From the NCBI RefSeq assembly GCF_003018255.1, contig NZ_CP027440.1: a stretch of DNA of 64,000 bases; one strand, written 5' to 3'. The stretch is from Escherichia coli (GTDB lineage Bacteria; Pseudomonadota; Gammaproteobacteria; Enterobacterales; Enterobacteriaceae). A program made the translations under genes and the position numbers. Every line of letters begins with the position of its first letter. Positions within the stretch are counted from its first letter, which is position 1. A model generated the notes under the pieces. That model was not told the DNA's origin, did not search any database, and worked only from the letters and a program-made list of their open reading frames with translations. Positions 16,325 to 27,728 of this stretch are shown piece after piece.

Positions 16325-18548
16325 TTTCGGACTCCAGTTGCGCAACCTGTTCTGGGTTTAAACCTGCTTTGAGTAATAGTGATTGCATCGAAACTTGTAA
16401 TTCGCGTTGAATTGTCAGGACGCGATCCAACGTTTCCTGGCTGATAACGCCTTCGGTGACCAAAAACTTGCCGAGCGGCAGAGAACTGCGTTCATGGCGC
16501 AATAACAACACGTTAATTGCTGAACGATTAATATGACCGAGCGTGGTCAGTATTTCGGCGAACAGGAACTGATGCGGCACATATTGCCGCCAGATTTCAC
16601 CGGCCTGCTGTTCCGTGAGCCACTGATGCTGAACCGCATTGTACAACATTGCCCGCGGGTCGTGACCGCGTCGGCGTGCATACCAGTGACGTAACCCCGT
16701 GACAATTTGTCCGCGCAGAACAATGACGTAACGCACTTTGCGTCCGACTTTACGCGTCAGGGCTGCCAGCGAAACCGGGTCAATACCATCTTCACTGCCG
16801 ACAATTAACTCATCATTTTCCAGACGCAGCGGCAGCACTGCATAATGCAGCGCCACGGAAGCCGGCATTTCGGCAATCAGTGATGAAGGGATCTGCCAGG
16901 CGTCGATCGACTCCCACGCCACGCCGTTTTGCTCTGCCAGCGCCTGTGCCAGCTGTTCGGCGCTAATCAGCCCCTGCATCAGCATTGAACCGCCCAGGCG
17001 TAGACCTTCGACGCGATTACGCAGTGCTGTATCGAGTTGTTCTTCAGTGATGACCTGATTTTCCAGCAGGATTTGGCCTAACGGGCGCAACGAGCGGGTA
17101 TCGCCAGTCACGCTGGGGAAGTCATGCGTTGTTTTATCCCACGCGACGCGACGTGGATCGCCGTGTTGAAGTACCTGTTTTAACGCGCGCCAGTTGGCCA
17201 TGAAGTTAATCAGGTTGCCCCAGAAAAGACGCAGGACAGATAGCAGCCCCTGCGTCAGACCGTAGTAGCCAGTGACAAAAATCACCCGCTGCACGATGCG
17301 GTTAACCATCAAACCAAAGTTTAGCCACAGCAGGGTCATTAACCATGCGCTGCCGCTGAAAATAGAAAGGAAATGCCAGGCATCGGGCCACAAACTTTCA
17401 TACGCCAGTAACAGCAAAAGCTGGATCATCACCAGCATCGCGAGGAAGCTGACAAAGTTACTGATTGCCCCTTTGCGGTCGCGCCAGAGAAAGTAGTTCA
17501 GCGTCAGGCTGGAGGTCCATTTGTGGGTTTTAAAGCCCTGGAAAACAATGCCGATGATCCAGCGAGATTTTTGTCGAACCGCAGTCGAAAAGGTATCGGG
17601 GAAATATTCGCGCACGCAGATCATGTTTGACGTCCGCGCGTGCTGTAAAAATTTACGCTGCTCGCGTTCTTTGGCTTCGTCCACCACCGGAAAACGGACA
17701 AAAATTTCCGTCATACCTTTTTCTTTCAGGCGGAAACCAATGTCGTAATCTTCAGTCAGACTCTGCACGTCGAAAGCAATACCGTCACCGTCAGCTAACA
17801 GTGCGGTCACGGCGCGGCGGCTGAAACAGGTGCCGACGCCTGCGCTGGGCACCTGTCCGGCGAGGGCTTCACGCACCGGAACATCTTTGCCATGCAGTTC
17901 TGAAAACTCATCAATGTAGGTCATGCTGGTGAAGTGCGTCCATTCGCGTTCGAACGGATACACTGGGATCTGAATCAGATCTTTACGCTCGACCAGATAG
18001 TTGAACAGACGCAATTCCATCGGTGAAATCACATCTTCGGCGTCATGCAGAATAAAACCAGCAAAAGCGAAATTGGCGCTACGTTCAAATTGGGTGATGG
18101 CGTCCAGCACGTTGTTCAGACAGTCGGCTTTGCTGGTGGGGCCAGGACGCGCGCAGACTACCTTATGCACGTTCGGGAAGCGAGCGCACACTTCGTCAAC
18201 ATCACGCTGAGTATCGGGGTCGTTGGGGTAGGTGCCAACAAAGATATGATAGTTTTCGTAGTCGAGCGTGGTCGCCGCCAGCTCGGCCATATTGCCGATG
18301 ACGCCCGTTTCATTCCACGCCGGAACCATAATCGCTAACGGTTTTTCATCTGGTTTATACAGTTCGCGGTAACTCATTCGCGGGTAGCGGCGATAAACAC
18401 TCAACTTGCGTTTAATGCGGCGTACCCAGTAGACGACATCAATAAAAAAATCGTCCAGCCCGCTGATGAACATGATGACCGCTAACGTTATCGCGATTAC
18501 TTTTAAGCCGTAGAGCCAGGTAGCAAAAACATCAAGAAGCCAGTCCAC
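16311..18548 (-). CDS. nfrB: bacteriophage N4 adsorption protein B (inner-membrane glycosyltransferase-like)
   Basis: 745-aa ORF, N-terminal TM helix, GT2-like region; overlaps nfrA start. Confidence 0.9.
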   Translation of the reverse strand: MDWLLDVFATWLYGLKVIAITLAVIMFISGLDDFFIDVVYWVRRIKRKLSVYRRYPRMSYRELYKPDEKPLAIMVPAWNETGVIGNMAELAATTLDYENYHIFVGTYPNDPDTQRDVDEVCARFPNVHKVVCARPGPTSKADCLNNVLDAITQFERSANFAFAGFILHDAEDVISPMELRLFNYLVERKDLIQIPVYPFEREWTHFTSMTYIDEFSELHGKDVPVREALAGQVPSAGVGTCFSRRAVTALLADGDGIAFDVQSLTEDYDIGFRLKEKGMTEIFVRFPVVDEAKEREQRKFLQHARTSNMICVREYFPDTFSTAVRQKSRWIIGIVFQGFKTHKWTSSLTLNYFLWRDRKGAISNFVSFLAMLVMIQLLLLLAYESLWPDAWHFLSIFSGSAWLMTLLWLNFGLMVNRIVQRVIFVTGYYGLTQGLLSVLRLFWGNLINFMANWRALKQVLQHGDPRRVAWDKTTHDFPSVTGDTRSLRPLGQILLENQVITEEQLDTALRNRVEGLRLGGSMLMQGLISAEQLAQALAEQNGVAWESIDAWQIPSSLIAEMPASVALHYAVLPLRLENDELIVGSEDGIDPVSLAALTRKVGRKVRYVIVLRGQIVTGLRHWYARRRGHDPRAMLYNAVQHQWLTEQQAGEIWRQYVPHQFLFAEILTTLGHINRSAINVLLLRHERSSLPLGKFLVTEGVISQETLDRVLTIQRELQVSMQSLLLKAGLNPEQVAQLESENEGE

Positions 18549-18699
18549 ACAAAAACCTTACATTAACGCTGGTTATGTTTAGGGTGGCGTATATTAAGGT
18601 TTTTTATGAATTGTGACAGCTTTTTACCATTAATAGGTATGACTATTGCGGCACGTTATTTTTACACTGGTTATAAAAGTTGCCGTTTGCGTAGAATGT

Positions 18700-19900
18700 A
18701 GACAAAAGCGTGGTGTCAAGGAGGGGAGGTTAACGCAGGGAAAGATTACGAAAGCCCGCTCCCAGCAAGGACTGACGCGAGATAGTTTCTGTCCATGGCT
18801 GCTTTTCGCAACTTACGTCTTAACCCTGCCTTGAATACCTTATCATTCGTCAAAATATTAATAGCGATGTGCCGTAGCCCTGAAAATAATTCTGCTGCAT
18901 TTCCTCTTCTTATTTTGCAGTCGTCTTCATTCATTACCACGTCCAGACGCCAGTGCAGCTTATTCTCCACGTGCCAGTGGTTTCGGATTGCTGTGGCGAA
19001 CTTCTCTGCGGTTAAATCAGCAGAACTGATATAATATCTGACCGTCATTTCTGGCTCTTTCTTTTGTTCTGCTATTATTGACCGAAAGGAGACTGCCACG
19101 CATAATTTCTTCAGTCCTTTCCATTCAAACGTGAAATCAATAAGTTCATCAGGGACATCGCAAACAATGTGAAGCCGGATTTCTTCTCTGCCGTGACTCT
19201 TTTCACTAATTGCGTAACTGTCATGCTCTGGATTATTTAATTCTTTCAGTGGGAATTTTTCCTCAAAGGCTTTATTAAGCCGCCCCTGATTTCCTTTTAC
19301 AGCGAATAAATAATCACCGCCCTGTTTTTGTATCTTCTCTGCAATATCTTTCTGGCAACCCATCGCATCAGTTGTGATGATTTTTCCTTTAATATCCAGC
19401 ATGTTAAGAAGTTCTGGGATAGCTGTAATCTCATTAGATTTCTCATCCGTCCTGATCTGTCCGATGACCAGACTGTGCATTGTTGAGAACGCACTAATGA
19501 CATGAATCGCTCCCCTGCGGCGACTCCTGTCATAAGAATGCCGGAGTGTTTTTCCATCGATTGCAATAACGTCTTTATCATCTGAAGTATGGCAATCTCG
19601 CATCCAGTTAATAAAGCACTCGTGAAATTTTGAAGGACTGATACAGGATACAACTCTGGCGATGGTATCGTGAACAGGAATACCATTTTCAAAATCACCA
19701 TATTGTTTTAAAAAATCGAGATGTGTTTCCCCAAAATCCTCTATATCTTCCCAGCCTTCTGCACCAGAAATAACGGCACAAATAGTCAACAGTAGAATAT
19801 CCGACAATTTATGTTCCACTTTCCAGGCTTGTCTGTAATCGGGGATAATAGAAATATGTTCCATCAATTTTTTAAGTTCCATTTTGTTCTCCTTAATTAT
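18700..19900. mobile_element. ISAs1-family (H-repeat) insertion element at the distal end of the Rhs island; boundaries approximate
   Basis: Contains an H-repeat-type transposase ORF; this family is classically found at the end of E. coli Rhs elements. Confidence 0.6.
18746..19882 (-). CDS. ISAs1-family transposase (H-repeat-associated protein)
   Basis: 378-aa [54 protein letters not shown]... typical of H-rpt/YhhI-type transposases. Confidence 0.85.
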
Positions 19901-19908
19901 GTAAGGAG

Positions 19909-20146
19909 TATTTGATCATGTATACGCAATAAAAAACAGCTTCAGGTAATGAGGAATATCTCGATTTTTAAACATAAAATGCGAATTACTTAGTACAAAA
20001 AATGTACTTCTGATGATCTTTCCCTGGTATTTGATCATGTATAAGCAATAAAAAACAGCTTCAGGTAATGAGGAATATCTCAATTTTTAAACATAAAATG
20101 CGAATTGTTTAGTACAAAAAAGCAGCGTTACGTGATCTTTCCCTGG
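19909..20146. repeat. tandem duplication, 2 x 119 bp, next to the H-repeat transposase start
   Basis: tatttgatcatgtatacgcaataaaaaacagcttcaggtaatgaggaatatctc... repeated at 19909 and 20028; copies diverge in their last third. Confidence 0.85.
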
Positions 20147-20230
20147 TGCAGGAACTGAGGAAGGAACTTTATCAGGTTAAACAGGTGGTGAAGGGAATGA
20201 AGAACGGGATATCCGGCGTATTACGCGAGG

Positions 20231-20266
20231 TATAAAAATAAAAGCCGGGAGATTGTCACTCCCGGC
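20231..20266 (-). terminator. candidate intrinsic terminator after the orphan immunity gene
   Basis: Hairpin gccgggag...ctcccggc followed on the minus strand by a T-rich run (ttttatttttat). Confidence 0.5.
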
Positions 20267-20272
20267 AACATA

Positions 20273-20554
20273 TTATTTTTTTATTTCATTATATCTGATA
20301 AAAAAAGTATTTAGCGCATCATGTTCATCTTGTGAGAACAATAAAATAATTTTATCCCATGAATGTCCTGTTACTCCATAATAGTCTTCAATATAAGATT
20401 GAAGCCTTATTAATATCTCAATATTGACGATTTCTTTTGGCTCTCTCATTTGCCATCCATCCAGGAAAGCTTTTAACGCCGATATGGTATGCCTGCTTAA
20501 ATATAAAGCTGGTCTTTTTTCTATCATATCAATCAGTTTAACAATATCATTCAT
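20273..20554 (-). CDS. putative immunity protein for the orphan Rhs toxin tip (RhsI-like)
   Basis: 93-aa AT-rich ORF starting 2 nt after the toxin-tip stop; position is the only evidence. Confidence 0.5.
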   Translation of the reverse strand: MNDIVKLIDMIEKRPALYLSRHTISALKAFLDGWQMREPKEIVNIEILIRLQSYIEDYYGVTGHSWDKIILLFSQDEHDALNTFFIRYNEIKK

Positions 20555-20556
20555 AA

Positions 20557-21180
20557 TTAAAACCTTGATGGAGTAATGGTGTATTCGCCAGGAGAGTATA
20601 TATCATTCAGCCAATCTTCATACTTTATACCAGAAGGATTCATATTATCAAAAACTGTATCACCTACTTTTATTGCTTCATGATGACCATTAGTTGCTAT
20701 ATTTTTACCTATTCTATCACTCCATATATTGCCAAAGGCACCTTGTTTATTTTTAGTTTCGAGTATGAGATGCTCACCATTTACCCCAGCTTGTTGCATT
20801 TTACTTTTTAACGCTGCGGCAAATTTATCGCATTGAAAAAGCTGTTTAAACTTATCACTTATTGTTGTTGCAAGATCCCTTGTTTTTGCGATATCGCAAA
20901 TGGTTAATCCTAATGGATCAATATAACCAAGGGGATTATGAACATATGCATAATTGTTTATCCCGCCTCTCAGCCCTATCGGGTCACTCACCAGGTACAT
21001 CCCTGTTTCCGGCTCGTAATACCGGAACCGGTTATAGCACAGCCCGGATTCCGTATCCTGCCACTGTCCTGCATACAGCAGGCCGGGGTCGGGGTCGGCT
21101 TCCGGGTCCAGCTCCCCGCGCGGGTCCGGGTAGCCGGTGTCTGCGGGCAGACTGAGTGCCAGCCCCCACAGGCTGGTTTG
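20557..21180 (-). CDS. orphan Rhs C-terminal toxin cassette (conserved PxxxxDPxGL junction plus about 115-aa variable toxin domain of unknown activity)
   Basis: In frame with orphan core fragment after an in-frame TGA; contains YYEPETGMYLVSDPIGLRGG...NPLGYIDPLGL then an AT-rich divergent tail. Confidence 0.65.
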   Translation of the reverse strand, partial: QTSLWGLALSLPADTGYPDPRGELDPEADPDPGLLYAGQWQDTESGLCYNRFRYYEPETGMYLVSDPIGLRGGINNYAYVHNPLGYIDPLGLTICDIAKTRDLATTISDKFKQLFQCDKFAAALKSKMQQAGVNGEHLILETKNKQGAFGNIWSDRIGKNIATNGHHEAIKVGDTVFDNMNPSGIKYEDWLNDIYSPGEYTITPSRF

Positions 21181-22476
21181 TCACGGTCGCCACACGGTTT
21201 TACCTTCACTGTTAAAGAGCATCAGCGGACGGCCCGTCAGGTCGCTCACCGCATGATTCGTCCGCGTCACCCACTGCGGGGCCACCGACGGATGCGGCTG
21301 CCGTACCCGGCTGCACTGCTGGCTTATCAGCTCAAAGCCGTTAAACACCAGGTGCCGTACGCTGTACAGTTTATCATCGCGGTATTCCCGGATTTCCGCA
21401 ATATTGTCGCCGTCCCACAGGTACGTAAAACGGATTTTCTTCCGGTCGCAGCGTTTTTCCGTCCGCCTGCCGCTGGCGTCGTAGCGGTATTCCCACTGCT
21501 CACCCTGTGCGCTGCAATACCCGGTCAGCTGGTCACGGCTGTCCCACCGGAACCGCTCTGTTTCCGGGCGGTAGCCGTCACGGTGTCTGGTGCGGCTGAC
21601 CATCCGGCCTGCGGCGTCATAGTCATACTGCGTGTTTCCGGCCTGTTTCAGCCGGTGGCCTCCGGCATACTGGTCAGTCTCTTCACTTATCCGGTGCCTG
21701 CCCGCAGACTGCGCCTTCAGGTAGCCACAACTGTCATAGCCATAGGACTCATCGCCTTCGCCATAGCCCAGCCCGGTGCCTGAGGCTGTCACCGCCGTGA
21801 CCTGACCGTTCCGGTCCAGCCGGTATTCCCGCCGTGTTTCCCGTCCGTAATCTTCCCGGCTGGTGACAGCCGACACATTGCCCGCGCTGTCGTAACGGTA
21901 CTCCCGTACCAGTGAGGGGAGCAGCCCGCCCCATGTGGTTTCCTCCGGGAAAAATCCGGCGCGCTGGGTGACAAGCTGGCTGGCTGCATTCCAGCCCTGC
22001 TCACAGGCAAAACCCCGGTTACTGTGCCGGAGCACTTCACGTCCTGCCTCATCACGGCTGAACGTCAGCGTCTCATCCCCCGGCAGGATAACCTCCGTCA
22101 GTTCTCCGGCGGCGTTGTAGCGGTAGGTGGTTTTCAGCAGGGATTCACCGGGATGTCTGTCGCGTTCATCTTCCGGTGGCAGGATACAGCGGATGACGGT
22201 GTGTTCATCGGGGTAGTGGTATTCAATGGCCCGTCGGCCCTGAGTGGTGACATTCACCCGCCCGCGTTCGTCATAGCCGGTGCGCTGTGATGTGCCGTCC
22301 GGGCTGAAGATACCCGTCAGCCTGCCGGATTTGTCATACGCATACTGCGTTTTGCCTTCCGGCGTGATGACTTCTGCCAGGCGGCCTGCGGCGTCCCGGC
22401 TGTAGAGGATGGTTTCCTCCAGACCGTTAACCCTGGCGGTACACAGGCCATCGGCGTCATAGCGGTAACGCCAGGC
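21181..22476 (-). pseudogene. orphan rhs core 3' fragment (no start or N-terminus), near-identical duplicate of the 3' core of the main rhs gene
   Basis: About 1.3 kb near-identical at DNA level to 23589-24884; YD-repeat translation; homology to main copy ends at about 22476. Confidence 0.8.
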
Positions 22477-22503
22477 TACTCCGTTGTACCCAGCTCATAG
22501 AAT

Positions 22504-22926
22504 TTATCTAGCAATTTGTATTAAGGGGGTTTCACCCACATGTTTTAATAAACTCATTAACCAGATGGCCTCTTCTCTCGTTCCGGAGTATATTACCTTC
22601 GATTCATTTCTAATAATTCGAAGTGCTTCTTTTGTATCAATCGAAAAAGCCTTACGAATGACTTTTATAGTTTCCATCTGTGATTTTATATTTTCAAGTC
22701 TAACATTCCATAAACCCTCAAAATCAATCAATTGTAGACGAATTTTTTCTGGGGGAAAGCCTATATCATCTGATTCACTACGTAATCCGCAATTATGGCA
22801 TATAATTGATTCATACCATGCGAGTATACCATTGTGACTCGTCTGCCCTATAGCTATAGAACATATTTTTCCACAGCAAGGACACTCAATAGTCGTTTTA
22901 AATTCATCACCAAACACTATAACCAC
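22504..22926 (-). CDS. putative immunity protein for the main Rhs toxin (RhsI-like), Cys-rich zinc-ribbon-like N-terminus
   Basis: 140-aa ORF overlapping the toxin stop; CPCCGKIC ... CHNCG cysteine pairs. Confidence 0.55.
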   Translation of the reverse strand: MVIVFGDEFKTTIECPCCGKICSIAIGQTSHNGILAWYESIICHNCGLRSESDDIGFPPEKIRLQLIDFEGLWNVRLENIKSQMETIKVIRKAFSIDTKEALRIIRNESKVIYSGTREEAIWLMSLLKHVGETPLIQIAR

Positions 22927-23588
22927 CCTCTCATCCGCTTATATCTTCGAATCGTCTCGTAAAATTTCTGTTCCATCTCAGTACCTTTGGGATGATGATC
23001 ATTCAATCCTCGCTTCCACCACCTATGATGTAATTCTTCATGAATAATAACATCTCTTAATGCTGCACGAGACGAAAAACTATTTTTACCAAACTGAGTT
23101 CCTTCCCAAAGTTTAGCAATCCCTGTTCGCATAAACGGATTGTATTGAGGGATATATGTTAGTTTAAGATATGCAAAATCTTCTTTAAGTATGGCTGTAA
23201 TTGCCTTATTTCTGGCTCTGGCCGTAGAACCTGTAACATGACCGAGATCAGAAACATAAGTCTGTGGCCCTCTAGAAAACTCGACTGTTTTATTAATTAT
23301 ACTAGTTATAGCTAATCCCAGCGGATCAACATACCCACACGGATTAGGCACATACCGGTAAGTCTGCTCACCCCCCAGCAACCCCAGCGGATCACTCACC
23401 AGGTACATCCCTGTTTCCGGCTCGTAATACCGGAACCGGTTATAGCACAACCCGGATTCCGCATCCCGCCACTGTCCTGCATACAGCAGGCCGGGGTCGG
23501 GGTCGGCTTCCGGGTCCAGCTCCCCGCGCGGGTCCGGGTAGCCGGTGTCTGCGGGCAGACTGAGTGCCAGCCCCCACAGGCTGGTTTG
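22917..23588 (-). CDS. C-terminal extension of main Rhs protein: PxxxxDPxGL junction plus about 130-aa toxin domain with HExxH motif
   Basis: Same frame as Rhs core, separated by TGA at 23589-23591; translation ...[20 protein letters not shown]...VDPLGL then ...[13 protein letters not shown]... Confidence 0.65.
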   Translation of the reverse strand, partial: [223 protein letters not shown]

Positions 23589-26500
23589 TCACGGTCGCCA
23601 CACGGTTTTACCTTCACTGTTAAAGAGCATCAGCGGACGGCCCGTCAGGTCGCTCACCGCATGATTCGTCCGCGTCACCCACTGCGGGGCCACCGACGGA
23701 TGCGGCTGCCGTACCCGGCTGCACTGCTGGCTTATCAGCTCAAAGCCGTTAAACACCAGGTGCCGTACGCTGTACAGTTTATCATCGCGGTATTCCCGGA
23801 TTTCCGCAATATTGTCGCCGTCCCACAGGTACGTAAAACGGATTTTCTTCCGGTCGCAGCGTTTTTCCGTCCGCCTGCCGCTGGCGTCGTAGCGGTATTC
23901 CCACTGCTCACCCTGTGCGCTGCAATACCCGGTCAGCTGGTCACGGCTGTCCCACCGGAACCGCTCTGTTTCCGGGCGGTAGCCGTCACGGTGTCTGGTG
24001 CGGCTGACCATCCGGCCTGCGGCGTCATAGTCATACTGCGTGTTTCCGGCCTGTTTCAGCCGGTGGCCTCCGGCATACCGCTCAGTCTCTTCACTTATCC
24101 GGTGCCTGCCCGCAGACTGCGCCTTCAGGTAGCCGCAGCTGTCATAGCCATAAGTCTCATCGCCTTCGCCATAGCCCAGCCCGGTGCCTGAGGCTGTCAC
24201 CGCCGTGACCTGGCCGTTCCGGTCCAGCCGGTACTCCCGGCGTGTTTCCCGTCCGTAATCTTCCCGGCTGGTGACACCTGACACGTTACCCGCGCTGTCG
24301 TAACGGTACTCCCGTACCAGTGACGGAACCAGCCCGCCCCATGTGGCTTCTTCCGGAAAAAATCCGGCGCGCTGGCTGACAGGCTGGCCGGCTGCATTCC
24401 AGCCCTGCTCACAGGCAAAACCCCGGTTACTGTGCCGGAGCACTTCACGTCCTGCCTCATCACGGCTGAACGTCAGCGTCTCATCCCCCGGCAGGATAAC
24501 CTCCGTCAGTTCTCCGGCGGCGTTGTAGCGGTAGGTGGTTTTCAGCAGGGATTCATCGGGGTGTCTGTCGCGTTCATCTTCCGGTGGCAGGATACAGCGG
24601 ATGACGGTGTGTTCATCGGGGTAATGGTACTCAATGGCCCGTCGGCCCTGAGTGGTGACATTCACCCGCCCGCGTTCGTCATAGCCGGTGCGCTGTGATG
24701 TGCCGTCCGGGCTGAAGATACCCGTCAGCCTGCCGGATTTGTCATACGCATACTGCGTTTTGCCTTCCGGCGTGATGATTTCTGCCAGGCGGCCTGCGGC
24801 GTCCCGGCTGTAGAGGATGGTTTCCTCCAGGCCGTTAACCCTGGCGGTACACAGGCCATCGGCGTCATAGCGGTAACGCCAGGTCACGCCGCCCCAGTCA
24901 TGCTCTTCCGTCACCCGCCCACAGTTGTCGAGAAGATAACGGTATGACTCACCCTGCGGGTTGATGACTTCTGTCAGTTGCAGCGTGTCTTTATCATAGC
25001 GGTACTGCCAGCGGTGGCCTTCACCGTCCGTTCGCGCCACCGGCAAATCAAACGGGCCGTATTCCATTGTCCAGACAACGCCGTTACCGTCCGTGTACGC
25101 CAGCAGGTTGCCGTGGCGGTCATAGCGGAATCCTTCTGCGCCGGTTCCTGCCCGCTCAAGGCCGCTCAGTTTATGGTGCTGCTGCCACTGCAACCGCACT
25201 GACTGACCGCCGGGGCCGCGCATCTTCACCGGCAGGTCGTGACCACTGTATTCGGTGTGGTGTTCACGGCCCATCACGTCGGTGAGTGTTTCCGGCCGGT
25301 TGTGGTGGTCGTACTCTATGCCCAGACGCCGTTCATCCTGGCGGAATATCCCCGACAGCAGCCCCTGAGCGGTGTACGCCAGCCGGGTCTCTTCGCCCTG
25401 TGGCGATACCAGACTCACCGGCAGGCCGCGTTCATCGCACTGCTGTGTCCACGTCTGCCCGGCAGGGTCGGTGATGTTGCTGAGCAGGCCGCGCTCATCA
25501 TAGCGGTACAACCACACCGCGCCGTCTGCCGCCGTATAACGGCTTAACTGACCGTGTACGGCGTTGTATTCAAATTTCTCCACCCGTCCGGCAGGGGAGT
25601 GGCGGGCCAGCAGGTGATGGAATTCATCCCATTCATACGTGGTGGTGCTGCCGTCCGGCGCTTCTTCCCGCAGAATATTGCCGTCAGGATCATAGTAATA
25701 ACGGTGAATGCCCTTGCCGTCCGTCACGGTGGTGCAGCCGTCACTATAGTCCAGCGTGGCGTTGTAATAGCCGTCCGCCCCGGTGACATTCACGCACCGG
25801 CCCTGTTCATCGTAGGTGAAACGGCTCCACGTCTGGTCGTTATCGGACCAGCGGATGATCCGGTCCGCAGCGTCGTACTCATAAAACAGGTGGTAGTCCA
25901 GCCGCGCATCCGCTTCGGTCAGCCGCCCCCGCGCATCCTGTTCGTAGGTCGCCAGCGTCTGTATGCCGTTATCCGTGCGGTGAATGGCTTTCAGGTAGCC
26001 GCTGGCGTGGTACGTCAGTTTAAGCCGGATCCCGTCGGTGTGACTGACACCCGTGATGCGGTACTGGCTGTCGCGCTCAAACGTGATGCGGTTGCTGGCG
26101 GTGTCGCTCATCCCGCCCAGCATGTACATCCGGTCACCGGGGCTGTGTGCCAGGCGGTCATCATTGGTATCGTCAGTCACCGGGTGGCGCAGGCGCATTC
26201 CCGGAAAGGCGTCATAAAAGAAGCGGCTGCTCAGGGCATCACGGTCGAACAGCTCCAGGTAATCGTCGCGGCGGCGCAGGATATACTGGGCGTGATACGG
26301 GTTAACCGCCGTATCACTGTCTCCGTCGAAGGCAAAGTACAGCGTGGCTCCCTGGCTGATGATATCCACCCGGTTTCCCTGTTCACGCACCCAGGCGTAT
26401 TCGCTCCAGGAGTCGCTCCAGCCCACGCCCGTCAGGCCATGCAGTGGCAGTACAGAACTGTGGAAACGGGTGAAGGAGAGGGGGAGTGTCTGGCCCAGCG

Positions 26501-27728
26501 TAAAGTCGGTACGTTCGTCGCAGTATGCGCCGGTTACCGGATCGACAGGATCTGTTACCCATCTGATGACTTTATTGGCAATACTTTTTAACGACTTACC
26601 TGTTTTCCCCAGCAACGCGCCGAGCTTTGCCCCCAGCAGCTTCCCGCTTTTCCCCAGCAGGTTTCCCAGTTTGCCGAGTTTCGCCAGATTCCCCAGTTTT
26701 CCCAGCAGTCCCGCGGGCGGCAGAAGATAGCTGGCTATCGTTATTCCCCCCAGGATCATTCTCTGCCACGGCGGGAACTCCGGCTGGATATCCAGATAGG
26801 TCACCTGTTCACCGCCAATAAAGACGTCCGGCGAACCTTCCACGATTGCCGCGCTGCACTCCAGTTTGTCGCCCTTGCGCGCGGCAGGCTGATTGTTGAT
26901 AAAGACGTTGCTGCTGCCCTGGGCTATCCTCGGTGGTTTGTTCTCCTTGTCGCAGAGCGCCGTGTCCTCACCGGCTTCCGGGAAATCCACGTCTTTTTTG
27001 ATTTCGCCACGCCCGCCCACCATGGTGGCAAACTCCATTAATACCGGACCGGCGGGAAACAGAAGCGATGCGCCGGCGCTGACGCGATCCATAATACCGG
27101 CATTGCTGTCCGTCAGGGTGATAACAGCGTTCCCCCAGGCCTTCGCCAGTGGCACTGCTTTTTCCGCTGCCGATTCAAGCAGGTCAGTGGCAATATCCCC
27201 CCATGAAGGTTCCCCCTGTGGTGGAGAGGGTATTGCTTCAGTCAGGGGAGGAGGGGGAAGGGTGACGGCGGCCCTGGCTGCTGGCTTACCGTTAATTTTT
27301 ACGTTTTCAGAACCGGTATTGATGGCGCCGTCCGTGTCACAAAAACTGTTTATCCATGACTCAAGCTGGTTCTGTTTCTCCTCCACATAATCACTCGCCT
27401 TATAGCTGGCATACATCAGCGCAGGCACCAGAACCAGCGCATAAGGGCCGGTGGCGCAGGCGGCCATAATCAGGCAACCTTCTGCGATAGTTACTATCGC
27501 CCCCAGCACGGCCCCTGCCAGTGCCCCCAGAAAACTTTTATGCTGAATTTCATCGCCCAGCCTGGCGGCAGGTGGGCCGGACTTCTTTGCTGCCAGCATC
27601 TGTGCAATGGCTTTGTCGTTGGCTGCCCGTTTCATCTGGCTGGCGACCATCGCCTGCTGTGACAGCATTCGCATTGCCAGCGTACCGCCTGCGGTCGCTC
27701 CCTGTGGGCCGCCTGGTCCTTCACTCAT
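23589..27728 (-). CDS. prePAAR/PAAR-domain Rhs repeat protein (T6SS effector core with YD-repeat shell)
   Basis: 1379-aa ORF; prePAAR motif [10 protein letters not shown] near N-terminus, PAAR motif ([14 protein letters not shown]), many YD repeats (YRYD, YEYD, YDxxGR); ORF ends at in-frame TGA before the DPxGL region. Confidence 0.9.
   Translation of the reverse strand: [1379 protein letters not shown]

Follow-up and report, generated by a model that had tools for sequence, protein, structure and literature searches.

A 64,000-nt stretch of an Escherichia coli chromosome (RefSeq assembly GCF_003018255.1, contig NZ_CP027440.1), referred to here as the window, carries an Rhs locus that forms an insertion between cusS and nfrB, and an orphan toxin/immunity cassette at this locus is the subject of the present analysis. 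On the minus strand the genes are arranged in the order cusR and cusS (33003-30882), vgrG (30138-28237), a gene for a 153-aa DcrB-related protein (28209-27748), the main rhs gene, a 140-aa open reading frame (ORF), the orphan cassette, an ISAs1 element, and then nfrB, nfrA and ybcH; the gene names given by RefSeq agree in the near-identical loci of four complete genomes. VgrG matched TIGR03361 (E 1.6e-188), and the N terminus of the main Rhs protein contains a class I prePAAR motif (prePAAR_I), PAAR and DUF6531 domains and transmembrane helices. Therefore, the orphan cassette sits behind a PAAR-Rhs effector gene of a type VI secretion system (T6SS). The cassette consists of a 1.5 kb start-less rhs core, a 115-aa Tox-PL-2 toxin tip, a gene for a 93-aa immunity protein and a terminator (Table 1), and its core is interrupted by a stop codon that is also present in the main rhs gene.

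Table 1. Features of the orphan cassette and of the surrounding Rhs locus (window positions)
Feature	Positions	Strand	Basis or remarks
Orphan rhs 3' core fragment, start-less	20980..22475	-	homologous to main rhs 23388-24883
In-frame TGA interrupting the orphan core (GGA to TGA, Gly to stop; WRP-stop-QTSLWG)	21181..21183	-	read from the sequence and its translation
Diverged last 32 core codons (MYLVSDPIGL…YIDPLGL), ending in the DPxGL motif before the tip	20905..21000	-	TIGR03696 Rhs_assc_core at residues 2-32
115-aa toxin tip, Pfam Tox-PL-2 (papain/transglutaminase fold), with stop codon	20557..20904	-	contains GHHEAIKVGDTVFDNMNPSGIKYEDW
Predicted catalytic residues of the tip	Cys25 20832-20830; His75 20682-20680; Asp86 20649-20647	-	
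93-aa all-alpha immunity protein, predicted cytoplasmic	20273..20554	-	2 nt after the toxin stop; AAGG 8 nt upstream of the ATG
Intrinsic-terminator-like hairpin and T-run, directly 3' of the immunity gene	20244..20266	-	8-pair stem (7 G-C), then TTTTATTTTT
Main prePAAR-PAAR-Rhs gene with Tox-MPTase5 tip	22917..27728	-	TGA-interrupted at 23591-23589; domain matches
140-aa immunity candidate for the main Tox-MPTase5 tip	22504..22926	-	ORF overlaps the end of main rhs
Gene-conversion patch in main rhs, maximal extent	23468..24078	-	orphan-type alleles including TGA and a 6-nt GACCCC duplication
ISAs1-family element (H-repeat), nfrB-side boundary of the locus	18736..20145	-	terminal inverted repeats 18736-18760, 20121-20145
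symE-family gene, convergent, C-terminal remnant	20128..20235	+	RefSeq annotation of identical DNA; translation

An initial annotation of this DNA had described an rhs 3' core fragment fused to a different C-terminal domain, and both the minus-strand reading and a blastn comparison agree with this description. The orphan core is 97.9% identical to the corresponding part of the main rhs gene over 1496 nt without a gap and begins within the YD-repeat region (…WRYRYDADGLC…). The frame is open from 22494 onwards, after a TGA and directly behind the main immunity gene, and no ATG occurs before the homology begins. Nucleotide homology to the main copy stops at about 20980, and the core end reads …YNRFRYYEPETGMYLVSDPIGL…DPLGL on the minus strand, fused to the 115-aa tip. 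The reading …YNRFRYYEPETGMYLVSDPIGLRGGINNYAYVHNPLGYIDPLGL is followed by the tip, which ends in …TPSRF, by its TAA (20559-20557), by 'tt' and by the ATG of the 93-aa ORF, so that the 2-nt spacing between the two genes was described correctly, as was the contrast between an AT-rich variable part and a GC-rich core (GC 0.31-0.38 in the tip and immunity region vs 0.60-0.67 in the core).

The 5' limit of the cassette had been placed at 21180, which is merely the codon after an in-frame TGA. The context spanning this stop codon is …CGACCGTGACAAACC…, and intact homologues have GGA (Gly) at the site (WRPGQTSLWG). On the 5' side of the TGA the same frame runs on through 425 more Rhs-core codons, from 22458, and the cassette is thus three times longer than described earlier and is interrupted by a stop codon. 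A sequencing error was ruled out as the source of the TGA, because it recurs in three independent complete genomes.

The initial annotation had also stated that neither encoded protein matches a recognised family, and this did not hold for the toxin, which matched Pfam Tox-PL-2 (PF15643) over model positions 7-102 of 103 (E 6.6e-23, 81.3 bits); RefSeq names the protein 'papain fold toxin domain-containing protein'. NCBIfam models recognised only the Rhs core end and none recognised the tip, and a search of PDB sequences with the toxin gave chance-level matches only (best E 0.047). Tox-PL-2 was defined with a signature of C, NxxH and DN and with the partner Imm73 (Zhang et al. 2012, Biol Direct 7:18), and the tip contains C25, N72-G-H-H75 and D86-N87 at the corresponding places. 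C25, H75, D86 and N87 (tip numbering) were invariant in an alignment of 42 diverse Tox-PL-2 members. In the AlphaFold2 model of the tip (pLDDT 97.8), Cys25 starts a helix spanning residues 25-38, and two consecutive strands carry His75 and Asp86; the tip is thereby predicted to have a papain-like alpha+beta fold with the papain arrangement of Cys, His and Asp.

A HMMER scan of 1.84 billion representative sequences detected tip homologues in 425 clusters at E<=0.001. Among 137 domain-complete hits, the median number of residues after the Tox-PL-2 domain was 0, and only one hit had more than 20; in Burkholderia and Kosakonia the domain forms the end of the Rhs proteins. The idea that the tip is a releasing peptidase was rejected, since nearly all homologues have the domain at their end and it is accompanied by a gene for a dedicated partner. 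The dN/dS ratio of the tip in comparison with Kosakonia was 0.16. A literature search with Tox-PL-2, PF15643, Imm73 and the RefSeq accessions as terms retrieved only the 2012 definition and a classification paper of 2023, which places Tox-PL-2 among the transglutaminase-like families and leaves its chemistry open; no experimental work on the family was found in the literature searched.

For the 93-aa protein the earlier statement stood: neither Pfam nor NCBIfam gave a match, and even at E<=10 no Pfam hit was obtained for this protein or for any of 18 homologues. PDB sequences matched it at chance level only (best E 0.061). Homologues are present in Enterobacteriaceae and Burkholderia, and a profile search extended the family to 118 relatives, including those of Neisseria, Moraxella, Bacteroidota and many cyanobacteria, of which 0/118 carry a Pfam immunity domain. 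The conserved core motif of the family is GHSWDKIILLFSxDExDALxxFF. The AlphaFold2 model (pLDDT 85.9) is all helical, with six helices, and a Foldseek search of AFDB50 with this model found many relatives, all named 'uncharacterized'; the match to structural relatives of 200-234 aa covers about 40% of their length.

The function of the 93-aa protein is indicated by its genomic position in other genera. In Kosakonia the stop of an intact 1356-aa Rhs-Tox-PL-2 gene is followed 2 nt later by a homologue, and in Burkholderia mayonis the distance between a homologue and the stop of the intact 1514-aa Rhs-Tox-PL-2 gene before it is 3 nt, with vgrG adjoining in both cases. Because homologues lie directly behind intact Rhs-Tox-PL-2 genes, the 93-aa protein is the predicted cognate immunity protein of the Tox-PL-2 tip. 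The dN/dS ratio of its gene in comparison with Kosakonia was 0.09. In Superficieibacter (loci L009 and L010, 5927-6282), the immunity homologue is intact and the toxin is reduced to its last 22 codons, and this region is an orphan-immunity remnant; in L009 a convergent symE gene lies 3' of the immunity homologue. A cyanobacterial protein from Microcoleus (P0237, 148 aa) bears the annotation papain fold toxin (PF15643) and also matches the immunity profile, with 78% of the query covered; it may represent a toxin-immunity junction that is either fused or mis-called.

The N terminus of the immunity protein (MNDIVKLIDMIEKRP…) is charged and contains neither a signal peptide nor a membrane helix, which together with the prePAAR carrier points to the cytoplasm as the probable site of toxin action.

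The main rhs gene ends in a tip that matched Tox-MPTase5 (PF15641, E 1.4e-29); this tip and its 140-aa partner are located at 22504-23450. By translation, its TGA is at codon 1380 of 1603, 224 codons from the end of the gene, and the Tox-MPTase5 tip therefore cannot be made as part of a full-length Rhs protein. The 140-aa immunity candidate behind it has no significant family match and contains CxxC…CxxC zinc-ribbon-like motifs.

Comparison of the two core copies indicated how the main gene acquired its stop codon. The main and orphan copies are free of mismatches for 611 nt round the TGA (orphan coordinates 21671 to 21059), and the remaining 32 mismatches lie at intervals of a few to 167 nt. 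In an eight-way alignment, the intact main copy of strain JNE23-011 differed from the orphan type at 12 sites (orphan coordinates 21292-21151); the main copy in the window has the orphan allele at all 12 of these sites as well as a 6-nt GACCCC duplication, and keeps main-type alleles upstream of 21671 and at 21059, 21054, 21042 and 20983. Orphan alleles inside the tract and main alleles outside it show that the TGA reached the main rhs gene in a gene-conversion patch that is 611 nt long at most and came from an orphan-type core. The GACCCC tandem duplication (…EADPDPGLL vs …EADPGLL) is located at 21093-21098 and 23501-23506; one copy of strain DETEC-S792 has it too, and the copies of JNE23-011 and AF40 lack it.

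Since both core copies carry the TGA, any deletion-type crossover between them keeps a TGA and yields no uninterrupted Rhs-toxin gene. Arming the cassette in this strain requires reversion or readthrough, and the view of the cassette as a ready-to-use spare was not borne out here, because the core of the orphan and that of the main gene are both interrupted by an in-frame TGA. The more general proposal that the cassette can be swapped onto the main rhs gene gained comparative support from the placement of the same tip on the main gene of strain AF40, from the 1.5 kb of shared core and from the conversion patch, which demonstrates past recombination between orphan and main copies in this lineage.

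The Tox-PL-2 cassette was found in seven of 5426 complete E. coli genomes. In AF40, the tip and the immunity gene (100% amino acid identity) terminate the main vgrG-linked rhs gene at the same locus; this gene has GGA at the TGA site, but its codon 31 is changed from CAG to the stop TAG and its start contains a 39-nt duplication, and it is annotated as a pseudogene (L005, 4648-4780). The E. coli copies of the tip and immunity genes differ mostly by synonymous changes. A check for decay of these two ORFs found both at full length, with the conserved residues intact and with amino acid sequences identical to those of AF40, and they are not decayed.

The TGA allele is present in three of the 5426 genomes, namely JNE23-011, JNE112863 and DETEC-S792. 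In JNE23-011 and JNE112863 it occurs in the orphan only, and the main gene of JNE23-011 retains GGA. In DETEC-S792 it occurs in all four rhs core copies, the main copy and three orphans (L003, 313, 2715, 5852, 8812), which indicates concerted evolution across the array. A search of E. coli genomes for the GGA allele in its exact context gave no match and was uninformative, because intact copies differ at neighbouring bases.

In strains d1-58 and PEC395 the cassette is located at a different rhs locus, next to ybgA-phrB. At this locus in d1-58 (L002, NZ_CP187961, 2759-16712), orphan tip/immunity cassettes alternate with repeated modules composed of symE, an HTH gene, a gene encoding a CHC2 zinc-finger (primase-like) protein of roughly 910 aa, and xerC. 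Among these cassettes is the Tox-PL-2 cassette, which has only a few core codons left. It is conceivable that the movement of the ybgA-phrB cassettes is linked to the recombinase.

The 378-aa transposase of the ISAs1 element at the end of the locus matched NF033564 (E 5e-125), and the symE-family gene was truncated by the insertion of this element. The element contains an internal direct duplication of 95 nt with a spacing of 119 nt (19908-20002 / 20027-20121, 96% identical). An Rfam scan of 18500-23600 detected no RNA family, SymR-like RNA included. A promoter scan was at chance level (8 found vs 5.8 expected) and neither supports nor refutes the earlier description of the fragment as promoter-less.

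Taken together, these results are best explained by a displaced (orphan) Tox-PL-2/immunity cassette of a T6SS Rhs locus whose toxin arm has been silenced, to which a probability of roughly 0.8 is assigned. The mode of action proposed for the toxin applies to a tip that is carried by an intact Rhs protein, an arrangement found in Kosakonia and Burkholderia (and in AF40, with the separate early TAG). In such a protein, the Rhs cage would enclose the tip, which would be cleaved off after the DPLGL motif; the VgrG/PAAR spike would fire the tip, and the prePAAR transmembrane helices would carry it into the cytoplasm of the target cell. There, the Cys25-His75-Asp86 triad on a transglutaminase-like papain fold may covalently modify one or more target proteins. 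Glutamine deamidation of proteins is the leading guess for the chemistry on the basis of the modelled fold, with proteolysis and transamidation as alternatives. In sibling cells, the small helical immunity protein would bind and block the tip.

Within the cassette in the window, the immunity gene is the component most likely to remain in use. A Shine-Dalgarno-like AAGG of its own precedes it, and read-through transcripts of the rhs operon could allow its translation; the product would protect the cell against neighbours that fire this toxin.

Several points weigh against this interpretation of the cassette and of its toxin. The proposed deamidase chemistry is drawn only from fold ranking, at 13-17% sequence identity, and proteases (LapG, SpvD, staphopain) as well as transglutaminases have the same fold and triad. 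Toxicity, protection, secretion and expression of the cassette are predictions made from sequence, and transcription of the orphan and of the immunity gene is assumed, because the promoter scan was at chance level. In addition, the identity to AF40 may reflect recent common descent, and intact ORFs are thus no proof of current selection.

Alternatively, the whole cassette including the immunity gene might be a decaying pseudogene remnant beside an insertion sequence, neither expressed nor under selection. The start-less core with its in-frame TGA, the immediately adjoining ISAs1 element with the cut symE gene, the rarity of the cassette among the E. coli genomes and the lack of an above-chance promoter in the scan are all consistent with such an inert relic. 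However, the tip and immunity ORFs are of full length with every conserved residue intact, their amino acid sequences are identical to those of the main-gene copy of AF40, and the differences among E. coli copies are mostly synonymous. Furthermore, the immunity gene outlives the toxin in other genera, as expected if immunity alone is useful. This alternative is considered unlikely, and the silenced cassette with a usable immunity gene is preferred.

It is less probable still that the TGA is leaky and that low-level readthrough at UGA-C yields sufficient full-length Rhs protein for the main tip to stay usable, and likewise the orphan tip once it has recombined. The stop codon is followed by C, and TGA-C is reportedly the weakest termination signal in E. 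coli; moreover, the allele persists in the four core copies of DETEC-S792 and in strains from China and Japan. The spread of the allele among copies, however, is accounted for by gene conversion, the allele is rare (three of 5426 genomes), the main gene of JNE23-011 retains GGA, and a readthrough residue that replaces Gly inside the Rhs shell may not be tolerated.

Two further explanations are very improbable. The tip could be a periplasmic NlpC/P60 (Tae-like) cell-wall amidase or peptidase instead of a cytoplasmic protein-modifying enzyme, but the charged N terminus of the immunity protein, which has neither signal peptide nor membrane helix, and the class I prePAAR Rhs carrier argue against this, as class I prePAAR Rhs effectors deliver their cargo to the cytoplasm. 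The 147-aa ORF that starts with the ATG at 21000 on the 3' side of the TGA (21000-20557), where RefSeq calls a separate coding sequence, could form with the 93-aa protein a chromosomal toxin-antitoxin-like pair that is independent of Rhs and T6SS, but this ATG is a conserved internal Met of the Rhs core (ETGMYL…) that is present in the main copy too, no spaced Shine-Dalgarno sequence precedes it, and homologues of the domain are found at the C termini of long polymorphic toxins.

The orphan Rhs cassette type and the Tox-PL-2 family are already known, and the silenced cassette described here adds one more example, which can serve as a textbook case of alternative toxin tips stored at Rhs loci. 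Its practical value lies in a clean and small test pair (115 aa and 93 aa) from a toxin family that was named in 2012 and has apparently never been tested experimentally. The fold of the tip points to protein deamidation, an activity that to our knowledge is found in few, if any, interbacterial toxins, and the immunity protein defines a family that is absent from Pfam and NCBIfam. The transfer of a stop codon by gene conversion, from orphan to main gene, shows what it costs to keep spare copies that are nearly identical, in that the same recombination by which a new tip can be armed can equally disarm the locus as a whole and leave the immunity genes intact.

A broader generalisation is possible but doubtful. 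Tox-PL-2 tips may be protein-glutamine deamidases that act between bacteria by inactivating a conserved bacterial protein of the cytoplasm and are neutralised by a widespread helical immunity family (118 or more relatives in proteobacteria, cyanobacteria and Bacteroidota) absent from the domain databases, and orphan cores may act as a store of nonsense mutations that reach the main effector gene by gene conversion and thereby silence it.

The cassette was compared with four known systems. The tip resembles the published Tox-PL-2/Imm73 pair in its near-full match to the family model, in its C / NxxH / DN signature and in its position at the extreme C terminus after RHS repeats. Imm73 was described as a small all-alpha protein adjoining Tox-PL-2, sometimes in two or three tandem copies, and Tox-PL-2 was listed in beta- and delta-proteobacteria, cyanobacteria and firmicutes, with type II secretion system (T2SS) and TcdB/TcaC trafficking (Zhang et al. 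2012, Biol Direct 7:18). The 93-aa partner is likewise small, all-alpha and encoded next to Tox-PL-2, a likeness by description only; it lacks any Pfam hit, so that its identity with Imm73 is unproven. In contrast to the published listing, the Tox-PL-2 domain found here is gamma-proteobacterial and linked to a T6SS (VgrG/PAAR).

The tip is predicted to share its fold and its Cys-His-Asp triad with the protein-glutaminase of Chryseobacterium (PDB 2zk9, 3a54) and with Gln/Asn deamidases; related Gln/Asn deamidases on the transglutaminase-like papain fold are NTAQ1/C8orf32, SseI and TecA. The tip differs from the protein-glutaminase group in its low sequence identity to it (13-17%), in the lack of a pro-peptide, in its much smaller size and in being a predicted interbacterial toxin with an immunity protein.

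With respect to the carrier rather than the cassette, the main rhs gene resembles those of the class I prePAAR Rhs effectors that reportedly act with Eag chaperones, such as the RhsA type of Pseudomonas protegens, in having prePAAR_I, transmembrane helices, PAAR, DUF6531 and an Rhs cage, and in being preceded by vgrG and a DcrB/Eag-like gene. Unlike in those effectors, the carrier gene is interrupted by a TGA in the window.

In arrangement the cassette resembles the orphan rhs cassettes of Enterobacteriaceae. Displacement of C-terminal tips is said to occur in E. coli rhs genes, and an orphan toxin of Salmonella Typhimurium is reported to be activated by recombination with the main gene. As in these cassettes, the main toxin-immunity pair is followed downstream by a 3' core fragment that lacks a start codon, the tip and its immunity gene are AT-rich, and a long direct repeat with the main gene permits swapping; the core ends in DPxGL and is followed by a tip (Tox-PL-2) unrelated to the main tip (Tox-MPTase5) and by an adjoining small ORF, and in the sister strain AF40 the tip is carried by the main gene. 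Unlike in the known cases, the shared core carries a nonsense codon that was gene-converted from the orphan into the main gene, so that recombination here has put the main gene out of action instead of arming the orphan.

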